Source: a virus
Lineage: Duplodnaviria > Heunggongvirae > Uroviricota > Caudoviricetes
Strand: one strand, 5' to 3'
Length of the DNA: 31,705 nucleotides
IMG/VR virus record: IMGVR_UViG_3300012348_000136
Location: 64,001 to 95,705 of that record
Below the pieces are notes generated by a model. It had not been told where the DNA came from, did no database searches, and saw only the letters and a program-made list of their open reading frames with translations. How positions within the stretch are numbered: the stretch's first letter is position 1; every line of letters begins with the position of its first letter. Position numbers and translations under genes: made by a program. Below, one piece after another: positions 1,958-16,217 of the stretch.

Positions 1958-2066
1958 TAATAATGAAAGCACGAGTCCGACATTTTGTAAAAAGAAAAGG
2001 CCGTATCTCGACAAGAGAAAGTATAAAAGACGCCGGTTGAGCCTAGCAACCAACAAATTTTCATAT

Positions 2067-2145
2067 GGGGTGTGAGTAAGGACGACTCGGTTTGGCAAAG
2101 TCAATTAAAACCCGAGGAACGGTTCGACTCCGTGACACTCCACCA
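2067..2145 (+). ncRNA. tmRNA tRNA-like-domain-only RNA (alanine-identity acceptor, no D stem, no reading frame)
   Basis: GGGGTGT/ACACTCC-A-CCA with G3.U70; 10-nt unpaired D region then GAC as in the tmRNA at 8204; CTCGG/CCGAG closes a 21-nt loop; T loop TTCGACT. Confidence 0.6.
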
Positions 2146-2162
2146 ATTTACAACTGGACTCG

Positions 2163-2243
2163 GTATGAGTGGCGATGTTCTCAGTGGGATTAAGTTCCCG
2201 CCTTCGGGTTGCTGAGGTTGTATGCCTGTTCTAAAGCTCATAC
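2163..2243 (+). ncRNA. candidate structured RNA
   Basis: GTATGAG/CTCATAC closing stem, inner CTCAG/CTGAG and GGGA/TCCC-type hairpins. Confidence 0.25.
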
Positions 2244-2255
2244 AAGATTTTCAAT

Positions 2256-2640: not shown

Positions 2641-2753
2641 GCCCTGGTAGGTTAATAGGTAAACCGACATGCTTCATTCAATGGTACCAAACGATGAAGG
2701 CATGTGTGTACAGCATGAAAATGTAGATCTGGGTTCGATCCCCAGTCGGGGCT
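2641..2753 (+). tRNA. tRNA body with 29-nt anticodon loop (22-nt excess); apparent UCA anticodon, identity unresolved
   Basis: GCCCTGG/TCGGGGC acceptor, GGTT/AACC D stem, ACATG/CATGT anticodon stem, long V arm, CTGGG-TTCGATC-CCCAG; no encoded CCA. Confidence 0.6.
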
Positions 2754-3705: not shown

Positions 3706-3835
3706 GTAAGCGAACATAAGAACGCATGATGCTGCAACTGATTGCAAGTAAGATGAGGTAATAGCATAGTAGGAGTGCACGGGGCGAGGAGCCTCGAGGC
3801 ATTGGTGCAAATCCAATTTACTTTCTGTCGCTTAC
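3706..3835 (+). ncRNA. structured RNA with nested T-arm module
   Basis: GTAAGCGA/TCGCTTAC outer stem; AAGTAA/TTACTT stem stacked on ATTGG-TGCAAAT-CCAAT. Confidence 0.35.
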
Positions 3836-3849
3836 AAGTTTTTCAATAT

Positions 3850-3925
3850 GGGCTCGCATGTTCCTCGGGGGCGAGAAGCACTTGCAATGCATCTGTGGCC
3901 GGTTCGATTCCGGTCGGGTCCACCA
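3850..3925 (+). tRNA. tRNA-Ala(UGC)
   Basis: G3.U70, CT-TGC-AA, A73-CCA; atypical D arm. Confidence 0.85.
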
Positions 3926-6057: not shown

Positions 6058-6132
6058 GCTTGTGTAGCTCAGCGGTAGAGCAAGGAACTCTAAATTCCGT
6101 CGTCGTGGGTTCAAATCCCACCATAAGCACCA
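6058..6132 (+). tRNA. amber suppressor tRNA (CUA)
   Basis: perfect cloverleaf GCTTGTG/CATAAGC, loop CT-CTA-AA, A73-CCA. Confidence 0.88.
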
Positions 6133-8203: not shown

Positions 8204-8539
8204 GGGGATGTTTTGGTTTCGACATAACTGGAGAAACAGCATCTGCAATCAAAGGTCTGCACGACCTCTTAAGTGCAAAAACACAAAAGGCGAAAATACC
8301 TTAGCTCTCGCTGCTTAAGCGGCGATCGTTTATCATTGACTCCTCTATTTGATAAGCGAACGACAGAGGATATCATGCATAGAGAAGATATGCTACGAAG
8401 TGTATAAGAGATGATACACTCGGGCGCTGTTCCGTTATACAGCTAGTCAGTCAGCTGACAATAAATGCTGAATATGATTGTAGGACAGATGCTGATGCAC
8501 TGGTTGTGGACACGGGTTCAACTCCCGTCATCTCCACCA
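8204..8539 (+). ncRNA. ssrA: tmRNA, inferred tag (A)GENTLALAA
   Basis: GGGGATG/CATCTCC-A-CCA with G3.U70; pk1 GGTC/GACC + TGCAC/GTGCA; GGC GAA AAT ACC TTA GCT CTC GCT GCT TAA at 8289-8318. Confidence 0.93.
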
Positions 8540-8550
8540 ATTTCTATAAC

Positions 8551-8610
8551 GCGAGTGTCGCATAGTGGTCTATTGCACTTCATTGCCAATGAAGATTTCG
8601 CAGGTTCGAG
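8551..8610 (+). pseudogene. 3'-truncated tRNA-Gly(GCC)
   Basis: intact 5' acceptor strand, D arm, CTTCA-TTGCCAA-TGAAG, GCAGG-TTCGA, then breaks off. Confidence 0.75.
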
Positions 8611-8623
8611 AAAGTTCGGTTTG

Positions 8624-8631
8624 TATAAATA
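8624..8631 (+). promoter_or_regulatory. T4-type late promoter
   Basis: TATAAATA, 5 nt before ATG 8637. Confidence 0.75.
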
Positions 8632-8636
8632 CTCGT

Positions 8637-9338
8637 ATGAACTACCAAGCTGCATACGACCATCTTATTGCATATCGTCGCGAACACCCCGCCGCCGGAT
8701 ACACCGAAAAACATCACATAGTCATGCGCTCAATGGGTGGATCCAATGTTCCCACCAACCTGGTAGTTCTAACTGGTAGAGAACATTGGATCGCCCACCT
8801 ACTCTTACATAAGATACATTGCAATTCGCAGACAATGTATGCTTGTCACATGATGGCAATGCGATGTGAAGAACGTGGTATAGCATACATTAAGAACTCG
8901 CGAATGTATGAAAAGATTCGCAAAGAGTGCGCAACATTAACATCGATGCGTATGCAATCTTCACAATCAGGTAAAGGAAATTCACAATACGGAACACGTT
9001 GGATTTGCAACATTCTATCAAAAGAGAATATGAAGATTTCTAAAGATGATATGATTCCTGATGGTTGGGTTAGTGGTCGTAATAGGTGGATTGTAAAACA
9101 TAATACTAAACCGAAAAGGGATAAGCTTGATAAGATGTTATGTATAACTGACGGTGTTCATAACAAAAGAATTTATTACACTGATCAATTACCTATTCCC
9201 GATGGATGGTTTATTGGTATCACTTATAGTAATTCTCATATGTCTAGCATAAAGAATGCTAGAAGAAAACATAATTTTTCATTAAAAGGATCTTCTGGTC
9301 AAGGAGGCTGGAAGAAACGAAATGCGGGTATGGTGTAA
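8637..9338 (+). CDS. HNH homing endonuclease
   Basis: EKHHIVMRSMGGSNVPTNLVVLTGREHWIAHLLL; repeated IPDGW..G motifs; stop lies inside next tRNA. Confidence 0.88.
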   Translation: MNYQAAYDHLIAYRREHPAAGYTEKHHIVMRSMGGSNVPTNLVVLTGREHWIAHLLLHKIHCNSQTMYACHMMAMRCEERGIAYIKNSRMYEKIRKECATLTSMRMQSSQSGKGNSQYGTRWICNILSKENMKISKDDMIPDGWVSGRNRWIVKHNTKPKRDKLDKMLCITDGVHNKRIYYTDQLPIPDGWFIGITYSNSHMSSIKNARRKHNFSLKGSSGQGGWKKRNAGMV

Positions 9339-13312: not shown

Positions 13313-14497
13313 ATGAAAGCACAAATTGTAATTGACACTTCTTTTGGTGATGGTGGTAAAGGCCTGACGGTGGATAATCTCTGCCGTCAGGCCGTCCGTC
13401 GCGGTGAGTCTGTAGCGGTTGTTCGCTTTAGCGGCGGTCAGCAATGTGGACACACCGTGATTCGTGATGGAGTGAAGCATGTCTTTTCTACGTATGGTTC
13501 TGGAACTCTTCAATGTATTCCTACTTATTATACTGAACATGCGACGATGAGTCTGCAGGCAACAATGACAGAGTATTTTGCTCTGCGTGAAAAGGGTATA
13601 GAGCCAAAGCTGTATTTCCATCCTCAGACGCGTCTTACTACGCCATATGATGTTGCTTACAATCGTGCAAAAGAAAGTGCTGCTTACTCTGGTGGTCGAG
13701 CAGGTGATGTTCGACATGGGAGCTGTGGCATGGGAGTTGGCGCTACTCTAAAGCGTCATGACGAAACGCCATACAAGATTTATGCAAGCGATTTGCTTTA
13801 TCCTCAGCTATTAAGTCAAAAGCTCGACAGCATTAAAATGTACTATGCACGTAAAGTTCATTCTGAAGCTCTTAATGATAGTGACGGTCTTGGATACGGT
13901 CAATCATTTTACAGTGCTTTTCATTCTGAAGTAAATGAGCAACTTGAATCTTTCGAAGCAGCTCTTGAACTAAGCAAACAACATGCTGCATTTGAAATTG
14001 CTAACCTTTACCCAAACCAATTTCGCAATTTGATCTATGAAGGTTCTCAGGGAGTTCTTCTTGACATGGATCATGGTATCTTTCCAAACGTAACTTACGG
14101 TAACACAACTTGTAAGAACGCAATTGAACATGCGTCGTGCTTAGGTATTCGCGACATCGAATTGTTTTATGTGTCGCGTTGCTATCTCACACGTCATGGT
14201 CGCGGATGGATGCCAAATGAAACTCCAGTCACTCTTGTAAATACTGATGAAGAGATTAACGTCACCAATCCTTGGCAAGAGCATCTGCGAATTGGAGAAC
14301 TTGACTATGACCTAATCAACTATGCATTAAATGTTGACGCTGGATATCATCGTGATTCCTATCGTCGTAACATGGTGATTACTTGTCTTGATCAGCGTCC
14401 CGATTGGAAACTTGACACCACGCGTCTTCCATACTACATTCAAGGAGTTTACACAAATGCATCTCCGCAAGCTGACTCTTGGGTGCTTACAAAATAA
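13313..14497 (+). CDS. divergent adenylosuccinate synthetase (PurA-family) protein
   Basis: FGDGGKG, GHTV, EGSQG.LLD, YLTRHG motifs. Confidence 0.88.
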   Translation: MKAQIVIDTSFGDGGKGLTVDNLCRQAVRRGESVAVVRFSGGQQCGHTVIRDGVKHVFSTYGSGTLQCIPTYYTEHATMSLQATMTEYFALREKGIEPKLYFHPQTRLTTPYDVAYNRAKESAAYSGGRAGDVRHGSCGMGVGATLKRHDETPYKIYASDLLYPQLLSQKLDSIKMYYARKVHSEALNDSDGLGYGQSFYSAFHSEVNEQLESFEAALELSKQHAAFEIANLYPNQFRNLIYEGSQGVLLDMDHGIFPNVTYGNTTCKNAIEHASCLGIRDIELFYVSRCYLTRHGRGWMPNETPVTLVNTDEEINVTNPWQEHLRIGELDYDLINYALNVDAGYHRDSYRRNMVITCLDQRPDWKLDTTRLPYYIQGVYTNASPQADSWVLTK

Positions 14498-14909: not shown

Positions 14910-16217
14910 ATGAAAACAAACATTAGGAATACTCCGAAGAACTTCACCCACGAAGGCGCGGTTGCGAAAAACATCAATGCAAAGCAAGAATTGCGTCGCA
15001 CCGTTATGTCGTGTTTGCTGTGGGAAAATAGCTTCTATGAAAGCGGTGTCGATATTGCTTCACGCATCGCAAACCTTGTGCCTCGCGTCAGCGGTAAGGA
15101 CGCAATGGAAATTGCAATTGAGTGTCGATCCTCAATGAAGCTGCGTCATACGCCTCTTTACATTGCTCGACTTATGGCACAAAACGCACATCAGCGTGAG
15201 TATGTTGCAACTACTCTGTTTGGAATTATCCAGCGTGCAGATGAACTGTCCGAATTCCTTTCTCTTTACTGGAAGGATGGTCGTGTCCCAATTGCTAAGC
15301 AGGTCAAGAAGGGTCTTGCGCAAGCATTCACTAAGTTCAACGAATATGCTCTTGCAAAGTATAATCGTGACGGTGCAATCAAGCTACGTGACGTCCTGTT
15401 CTTGGTACACGCTAAGCCAAAAGACGAAGAACAAGCTGCTCTTTGGAAGCGCCTTGTTAGTGACGAGTTGAAGACTCCAGATACGTGGGAAGTTGAATTG
15501 TCAGCTTCGTCTGATAAGAAGGCTTCTTGGACTCGATTGCTGTCCGAAAACAAGTTGGGTGCATTGGCTCTGTTGCGTAACCTTCGTAACATGAAGAACG
15601 CTGGTGTAGATGACATGTTGATTCGCGATGCATTGCGTAATATCAATCCAGAACGTGTCCTTCCATTCCGTTTCATTAGCGCTGCGCGTCATGCGCCAAG
15701 CTTTGAGGCTGAACTTGAAGACGGTATGTTTAAGTGTTTGGAAGGACACGCTAAGCTGCCAGGTAAGACCGTTCTGTTGATTGACGTCTCAGGCTCGATG
15801 GATTGGACGATCAGTGACAAGAGTGACATCAATCGTATTGACGCTGCATGTGGACTTGCTATGTTGCTGCGCGAGATTTGTGATACCGTTGAGGTTCATA
15901 CTTTCTCAAATGCAGTTCGTGAAGTTGCGCCACGTCGTGGATTCGCGCTTGCCGAAGCTATCAATCGTTCTCAGCCTCACGGTGGAACTAATCTCGGGCA
16001 AGCGGTTAAAACGATCAATGAAATTAACTGTGATCGTCTGATCGTTATCACTGATGAACAGAGCTCATCTCGCGTTCCAGATCCAGTGTGTAAGAAGTCC
16101 TATATGATCAACGTTGCTTCCTACAAGAATGGTGTTGGTTATGGTCCTTGGACACACATTGACGGTTGGAGCGAAGCTATTGTGACTTACATCCAGACGC
16201 TCGAAAATTCACATTAA
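14910..16217 (+). CDS. rsr: Ro60/TROVE RNA-binding protein
   Basis: THEG, ELRRTVMSCLLWE..FYE, TPDTWE, ALLRNLRN, PFRF..A, C-terminal DVSGSM VWA. Confidence 0.93.
   Translation: MKTNIRNTPKNFTHEGAVAKNINAKQELRRTVMSCLLWENSFYESGVDIASRIANLVPRVSGKDAMEIAIECRSSMKLRHTPLYIARLMAQNAHQREYVATTLFGIIQRADELSEFLSLYWKDGRVPIAKQVKKGLAQAFTKFNEYALAKYNRDGAIKLRDVLFLVHAKPKDEEQAALWKRLVSDELKTPDTWEVELSASSDKKASWTRLLSENKLGALALLRNLRNMKNAGVDDMLIRDALRNINPERVLPFRFISAARHAPSFEAELEDGMFKCLEGHAKLPGKTVLLIDVSGSMDWTISDKSDINRIDAACGLAMLLREICDTVEVHTFSNAVREVAPRRGFALAEAINRSQPHGGTNLGQAVKTINEINCDRLIVITDEQSSSRVPDPVCKKSYMINVASYKNGVGYGPWTHIDGWSEAIVTYIQTLENSH

Follow-up and report, generated by a model that had tools for sequence, protein, structure and literature searches.

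The stretch of DNA analysed here, referred to as the window, is 31,705 nucleotides long and corresponds to bases 64001–95705 of a 95.7 kb viral record, a fragment estimated by CheckV to be ~50% complete (G000). A tRNA array spans positions 60666–74149 of this record, with 42 tRNA genes called by ARAGORN. The array's tRNA genes all encode CCA, and most are preceded by a spacer of the tttcaa(t)at type and followed by (a/c)ttt. Within the array, at window positions 2067–2145 and 6 kb from a full-length phage tmRNA, lies a 79-nt unit with the following parts and surroundings.

2050–2066, plus strand: 5′ leader with the array spacer motif (..aaattttcatat) common to most array tRNA genes, abutting base 1 of the unit
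2067–2073, plus strand: acceptor 5′ strand GGGGTGT, with G3 of the G3:U70 pair at 2069; 7/7 pairs with 2135–2141
2074–2085, plus strand: unpaired 12-nt linker GAGTAAGGACGA, which contains GG and replaces the D arm (sequence reading)
2086–2116, plus strand: single long hairpin replacing the anticodon arm (constrained fold, −19.9 to −20.7 kcal/mol)
2117–2134, plus strand: GA junction and T arm, comprising ACGG (2119–2122), T loop TTCGACT (2123–2129), CCGT (2130–2133) and an extra G2134 (sequence reading, script check)
2135–2145, plus strand: acceptor 3′ strand ACACTCC (U70 equivalent at 2139), discriminator A2142 and encoded CCA at 2143–2145 (sequence reading, script check)
2146–2255, plus strand: conserved structured RNA in the spacer that separates the unit from a tRNA-Glu gene, 87–90% identical in sister contigs (context, outside the unit)
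8204–8539, plus strand: full-length phage tmRNA with a canonical tRNA-like domain (ARAGORN; Rfam RF00023, 129.2 bits)

Megablast of the array against isolated phages matched single tRNAs and nothing more. Searches for the SmpB and FemAB families in the whole 95.7 kb record (~50% complete) returned no gene. With a record only about half complete this absence is uninformative, and for SmpB the more so as the host protein would serve. Pfam and PHROG searches of ORFs lying within the array or next to it likewise revealed no tRNA- or tmRNA-related enzyme, and no candidate partner protein for the 79-nt RNA was identified within the window. Two near-identical sigma-70-like promoters (1540–1568 and 1678–1706; TTTACA-17-TAGAAT with extended TG) both lie upstream of the non-coding region leading into the unit. 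Further along, positions 13313–14497 encode a PurZ-like protein (phrog_1211, ‘2-aminooxy adenylosuccinate synthetase’) and positions 14910–16217 a 435-residue protein of phrog_850 (‘RNA-binding protein’).

The 42 called genes fall well short of the number of tRNA-shaped genes in the array. CCA-ending or tRNA-like units left uncalled by ARAGORN are found at record positions 60571–60657, 61849–61923 and 63213–63287 and at window positions 3755–3825, with perfect 7-bp acceptors and T stems of 4–5 bp (5 bp in two of three). A tRNA-like gene at window 2641–2753, with a ~45-nt insertion in its anticodon loop and no encoded CCA, scores 42.5 bits with the Rfam tRNA model and is read as Ser(cga) in ARAGORN intron mode, while an amber-suppressor-type tRNA(CUA) is located at 6058–6132. 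As for the full-length tmRNA, the tag proposed by ARAGORN (AKTQKAKIP*) is probably in the wrong frame; another frame gives ...KGENTLALAA*, a canonical ALAA degradation tag with its stop within the loop of the following hairpin.

The 79-nt length of the unit was established by sequence reading and a script check, and its flanks are those of 43 array tRNA genes, with ...ttttcatat before base 1 and attt after the CCA. As leader and trailer are the same as those of its tRNA neighbours, the unit is a member of the array and not a chance hairpin, and the leader presumably provides the context for RNase P processing. An earlier note on this DNA had described a 79-nt RNA with alanine identity and no D stem, and both descriptions are borne out. 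The acceptor, GGGGTGT/ACACTCC, forms 7 pairs with 0 mismatches, including G1-C72, G2-C71 and G3·U70, and is followed by A73 and CCA, while only a weak 3-bp D-like stem (AGT/ACT) is possible. The acceptor with G3:U70, discriminator A and 3′ CCA that characterises tmRNAs and their versions reduced to the tRNA-like domain (TLD only) is therefore present, whereas the D arm, 5-bp anticodon stem and 7-nt loop with U33 and R37 of a canonical tRNA are not. The layout had also been said to match that of the phage's own tmRNA position for position. This holds for the 7 + 10 spacing and the GAC, found at 2084–2086 (unit positions 18–20), but the 10-nt D-loop analogue differs (GAGTAAGGAC vs TTTTGGTTTC).

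The hairpin in place of the anticodon arm had been drawn as a helix 2 capped by a 21-nt loop. Its core, CTCGG/CCGAG, does enclose 21 nt, but the helix can be extended by TTT/AAA across a bulged C to leave a 14-nt loop, such that CTCGGTTT (2086–2093) pairs with AAA-C-CCGAG (2108–2116), with C2111 bulged, around GGCAAAGTCAATTA (2094–2107). Read from the sequence, the hairpin loop offers no U33-NNN-R37 anticodon context, and a genome-wide search for complementarity to the 14-nt loop gave a single 11-nt match, which is the chance level. The T loop has the canonical form, TTCGACT. Its stem is built of only 4 Watson-Crick pairs (ACGG/CCGT), beside either A2118·G2134 as a fifth pair or G2134 as an extra nucleotide, and the GGAC junction of the TLD-only family is reduced to GGA. 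The unit is not called by ARAGORN in default, intron, mitochondrial or low-stringency tmRNA settings, nor by Rfam at the gathering score. With stringency lowered to 80%, ARAGORN offers a poor tRNA-Phe(aaa), in which the D stem is 3 bp long, the anticodon stem is mismatched and the loop, GCAAAGU, lacks U33. The minimum free energy structure, at −24.7 kcal/mol (z −0.97), is not the tRNA-like one (−19.9 to −20.7 kcal/mol), and thermodynamic folding does not discriminate between the readings considered below, as is often the case for tRNAs. The unit is thus an intact array gene without a decoding apparatus, lacking both an anticodon arm and any real D arm.

An exact 24-mer of the unit has no match in IMG/VR, pattern searches of 2.9 million viral and 241 million metagenome contigs recovered the unit in no record other than its own, and a relaxed unit-specific pattern found no match in metagenome contigs. 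Two sister contigs, with 87% identity in the neighbouring protein, align with the unit's flanks at 83–87% identity but not with its body. In the sisters the slot is occupied by a 77-nt unit (L129:362–438), GGGGCGC...CCGCTCCACCA, with G3·U70, A73 and CCA, which has an aberrant T loop (TTGGGTG) and neither GAC nor GGAC. This 77-nt unit fills the slot in G001, G002, L198, L202 and L203, and a search with the 3′-flank pattern added only two further copies, both in metagenome contigs. Its linker sequence TCCAA (L129:362–438) is complementary to TTGGG of its T loop, which suggests that this pairing may be a Watson-Crick replacement of the D-loop/T-loop elbow contact. A third arrangement is seen in L199, which has 90% identical flanks and no extra unit in the slot, and in which a tRNA-like unit of ~110 nt precedes the RNA of the 2146–2255 type. 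The slot is therefore variable among sisters whose flanks are 83–90% identical.

The sequences nearest to the unit are alanine-acceptor units of 82/83 nt from other members of the group, L129:1730–1811 and L199:11486–11568, which give z values of 6.7–8.3 in global alignment. By the same measure no tRNA exceeds 5.4, TLD-only members reach 4.3–4.9, and the TLD of the phage's own tmRNA gives 3.7. A further pattern search recovered only the 82/83-nt sister units and one unrelated GC-rich element, and we found no published description of these units in a literature search. They share with the unit a GGGG...CTCCACCA acceptor with G3:U70, the linker sequence GTAAGG, a long hairpin with an A/U-rich loop, the T loop GGTTNGANTCC and the array flanks, and in their T stem 4 bp are likewise supplemented by an additional nucleotide or a pair other than Watson-Crick. 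They differ in array slot, helix register and loop sequence, and in having no GAC/GGA flanks. The units share one architecture, but a MAFFT alignment of these few sequences places the long helix out of register, and the modest similarity, among five sequences in all, is what would speak for homology. The two 82/83-nt versions themselves differ by a compensatory change in the acceptor, from C5-G68 to U5-A68.

Non-canonical units with G3:U70, A73 and CCA number ~3 per genome of the group, in addition to a normal tRNA-Ala. In the source record the three are found at record positions 62692–62774, at the 79-nt unit and at window 3850–3925. The first, 1.2 kb before the window, is 83 nt long and combines G3:U70, A73 and CCA with a single mismatch in the acceptor and a long hairpin in its interior. 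The last is a 76-nt unit with G3:U70, A73 and CCA, UGC in a 7-nt loop and no normal D arm; it is missed by ARAGORN and at the Rfam gathering score, and is 100% identical in L129:1824–1899 and L198:14025–14100.

A unit found in one contig only, in a slot that is refilled or empty in close relatives, could be a by-product that serves no function, namely a tRNA-like cassette in decay or one generated by recombination between the conserved spacers and CCA ends of the array. The imperfect T stem, the fold (z −0.97) and the presence of homing endonuclease genes within the array (462–1130 and 8565–9338) are consistent with this. It is more difficult to reconcile a by-product with a unit in which all 7 acceptor pairs, G3:U70, A73, CCA, the T loop and the processing flanks are intact, with 82/83-nt relatives that keep their acceptor through a compensatory change, and with the retention of ~3 alanine-type units in each sister genome. 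This explanation, the best of the alternatives, is in our opinion doubtful.

The earlier note had interpreted the unit as a message-less mini-tmRNA and knew of no phage example of such an RNA. The latter view is outdated, as ‘Mycobacterium phage DS6A (TLD only)’ had by 2014 been listed by Hudson, Lau and Williams (PMC4131195), where a similar molecule is described as strongly inhibiting tmRNA, perhaps via SmpB titration. A 2025 tmRNA database paper restates the DS6A case, for which Mao et al. 2009 is the source it cites, and adds plastid forms of ~65 bp (PMC11915505). The search for short GGGG..GAC..TTCRA..CCACCA units that had been proposed was run on IMG/VR contigs using a degenerate pattern taken from the candidate (GGGG-N13-GAC-N20-50-GGTTCRANTCC-N7-TCCACCA). 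It matched at least 120 contigs with 88 distinct sequences, most of which belong to one clean family of genuine TLD-only RNAs in size classes of 66–68 and 77–83 nt. The family consensus reads GGGGGTG, then a 10-nt D analogue with TTC, ATC or TTA at its end, GAC and a hairpin, followed by GGAC, the 5-bp T stem and CACCTCCACCA. The hairpin, which was not used in selection, shows 95.5% pairing, both sides having changed at 5/6 pairs. Helix 2 is backed by covariation in the covariance model built from 48 sequences (R1), with which the DS6A unit (JN698994, 28478–28560) scores 56.4 bits. The longer size class and DS6A share a conserved interior, UAAAGCC...GG.A. The family members from IMG/VR (L009–L128) are either overlooked by ARAGORN or wrongly extended, yielding false tmRNAs that bear spurious tags. 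TLD-only tmRNAs are therefore known and common in phages, and some lie inside tRNA arrays.

In its general description the unit is close to this DS6A type, which is likewise phage-encoded, about 66–83 nt long and sometimes found in tRNA arrays; both have a G3:U70 acceptor, A73, (C)CA and a T arm, a single helix in the position of helix 2, and neither a D stem nor a tag frame. The jakobid mitochondrial tmRNA (TLD only) is also an alanine-accepting tRNA-like domain without a message, but is set apart by description, being organellar and derived from an alpha-proteobacterial two-piece tmRNA. When the unit is compared with the family in detail, the likeness does not extend to family membership. 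With the Rfam tmRNA model (RF00023, gathering score 47 bits) the unit aligns end to end, with the middle deleted, and scores 20.2 bits, while ordinary array units score 20.0, 19.3, 18.2, 18.0 and 16.4 bits and 20 genuine phage TLD-only units score 53.7–81.1 bits, 20/20 above 47. The small Rfam E-value of the unit thus shows that it is tRNA-clan-like, not tmRNA-like. After clan competition only RF00023 is listed for the unit, with no match to the jakobid mitochondrial family, and the Rfam tRNA model (RF00005, cut-off 29) scores less than 20.2 bits.

With R1, the unit scores 41.9 bits (E 8.5e-8), at the top of the array and 10 bits above every other unit, so that some TLD likeness beyond that of a plain tRNA does exist. 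Twenty-two held-out members score 63.5–76.9 bits with the same model and the weakest borderline cases 46–54 bits, whereas a tRNA-Ala-like non-member that fits the search pattern (L042) reaches 41.8 bits, indicating that the score of the unit is what the pattern alone yields. A test independent of the pattern was provided by a position-weight matrix of the 14 columns that the pattern leaves unfixed, ten of them in the D analogue and four just ahead of the T arm. In this matrix, scores run from +11 to +20 bits for the 48 sequences used in training and from +9 to +18 bits for most held-out members, compared to −5 to −33 bits for non-members and −21 ± 8 bits for random 14-mers. The unit scores −25 bits, or −9 in the best of five registers, and its signature columns are at the random level. 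The T stem is 5 bp long in 87 of the 88 unique pattern matches, non-member controls included, and 4 bp in the unit, and the GG and GAC are separated by 2 nt (GG-AC-GAC) instead of the 4–5 nt of the family, with no UUC before the GAC. The 82/83-nt units score ~20 bits with R1, as do ordinary tRNAs, and contain neither GAC nor GGAC; the tmRNA-like motif of the unit is therefore unconserved in its own lineage.

The unit does not belong to the TLD-only family, as the Rfam score, the R1 score, the matrix and the T stem all speak against it, and it does not appear to be a true tmRNA derivative. An origin from the phage's own tmRNA by internal deletion was rejected, as its similarity to the TLD of that RNA (8204–8539; z 3.7) is no higher than the level of ordinary tRNAs. 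The unit and this TLD both have an alanine acceptor and the 7 + 10 + GAC layout, and their T loops resemble each other, but the D-loop analogue of the unit is unrelated, its GGAC is truncated and its T stem is one pair shorter. What stands of the mini-tmRNA interpretation is a TLD-like topology beside a full tmRNA; what does not is membership of the family, given 20.2 bits with Rfam, 41.9 bits with R1 and a random signature.

SmpB binds the TLD at its elbow and D-loop (PMC3968760). With the D-loop/GGAC signature missing, by which this elbow is recognised in all genuine TLDs, the unit is judged unlikely to engage SmpB or to enter stalled ribosomes. The phage's own tmRNA has canonical versions of the elbow parts that are altered in the unit, so that the host SmpB presumably expects a canonical elbow. 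It could still be argued that the unit is a divergent but working TLD-only mini-tmRNA, which would be alanylated, bind SmpB and EF-Tu, and either compete with trans-translation or donate untagged alanine. Its topology agrees, with an acceptor, a D analogue that is unpaired and contains GG, one long helix set between GAC and GGA, and a T arm; it is the best R1 match in the array, the Rfam tmRNA model outscores the Rfam tRNA model on it, and phage precedents exist, some within tRNA arrays (PMC4131195). However, the unit fails the Rfam cut-off passed by 20/20 genuine units, has random signature columns, GG-N2-GAC for GG-N4/5-GAC, no UUC, GGA for GGAC and a 4-bp T stem, its nearest homologues lack GAC/GGAC, and no SmpB gene is found in the 95.7 kb record. 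The DS6A-type family, by comparison, combines GG-N4/5-(U/A)U(C/A)-GAC, the GGAC junction and the 5-bp T stem with scores of 54–81 bits. In addition, a full tmRNA with a canonical TLD is present here, as opposed to 0/20 of the TLD-only records tested (mostly fragments), and the idea of an SmpB competitor sits awkwardly with a phage that encodes its own full tmRNA. We consider a working mini-tmRNA quite unlikely.

The conserved RNA downstream of the slot suggests another role, in which the unit would be a cis-acting processing handle, an RNase P-competent element that sets the 5′ end of the structured RNA 2146–2255 and whose interior is free to vary. The 110-nt RNA is 87–90% conserved, while the unit upstream of it differs between relatives (79 nt here, 77 nt in sisters and the ~110-nt tRNA-like unit of L199), and all three upstream units end in CCA right before the same atttacaac. 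A handle of this kind would leave unexplained both the alanine identity of two unrelated occupants and the alanine-type units at other slots, and we regard it as quite unlikely to be the main role. That the unit might be a decoding tRNA after removal of an insert, whether a tRNA-Ala(GGC), a tRNA-Pro(UGG) or a D-armless tRNA-Phe(AAA), is scarcely credible, since the tRNA-Phe(aaa) drawn by ARAGORN at 80% stringency, the TTGGCA within the loop, from which a GGC anticodon could result if ~11–14 nt were removed and the ~45-nt anticodon-loop insertion of another array tRNA are set against 12 nt between acceptor and helix, too few for a D arm, a loop without U33-NNN-R37 context, an Rfam tRNA score below 20.2 bits with a cut-off of 29 and, to our knowledge, no splicing system for such short inserts in bacteria.

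We tentatively prefer to read the unit as a non-decoding, alanine-chargeable tRNA mimic whose acceptor end would serve as a sink or decoy, a role that we can only infer. The RNA would be transcribed with the array, cut by RNase P at G2067 in the same way as its neighbours, and have its 3′ end formed by the encoded CCA, before being charged with alanine by AlaRS. Acceptor-T minihelices are sufficient AlaRS substrates. Alanylation of the unit is a sound inference, because G3:U70 and A73 suffice and the rest of the RNA is irrelevant to the enzyme. Indeed, G3:U70 and A73 are the AlaRS recognition determinants (PMC3968760). With the enzyme indifferent to everything else, the interior has freedom to change, in agreement with how diverse the alanine-type units of the lineage are. 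The 79-nt unit would then be one of ~3 non-canonical alanine acceptors per genome with widely different interiors, gained, lost or swapped between close relatives, and the targets of the sink or decoy would be factors that read the acceptor-T arm of tRNA-Ala or tmRNA. We lean towards a lineage-specific tRNA mimic, predicted to be alanine-chargeable and processed.

The T4 tRNA cluster provides a comparison by description, as it contains small stable RNAs of unknown function (species 1 and 2, rnaC/rnaD) that are processed with the tRNAs. Like the unit, they are non-tRNA small RNAs within the tRNA cluster of a T4-type phage, although we know of no alanine identity among the features of species 1 and 2.

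For the annotation of mini-tmRNAs the unit provides a clean negative control, in which an alanine acceptor, a T arm and the GAC spacing are insufficient for a call, and the Rfam tmRNA cut-off separates genuine mini-tmRNAs from such mimics. If charged and stable, the mimics of this group of phages would represent a new phage use of the anticodon-independence of AlaRS. A broader proposal, that the lineage deliberately keeps ~3 alanine-chargeable, non-decoding mimics per genome, with cassette-like interiors, as fast-evolving aminoacylated decoys or adaptors, goes further and we regard it as unlikely. If true, such decoys or adaptors might, to name one possibility, be aimed at defences or host factors by which tRNA-Ala or tmRNA ends are recognised, and they would form a mimic family additional to the phage's own full tmRNA and distinct from the known TLD-only mini-tmRNAs. 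At the level of the group, one set of large phages carries several tRNA mimics of alanine identity, with freely varying interiors, in variable slots of their tRNA arrays.
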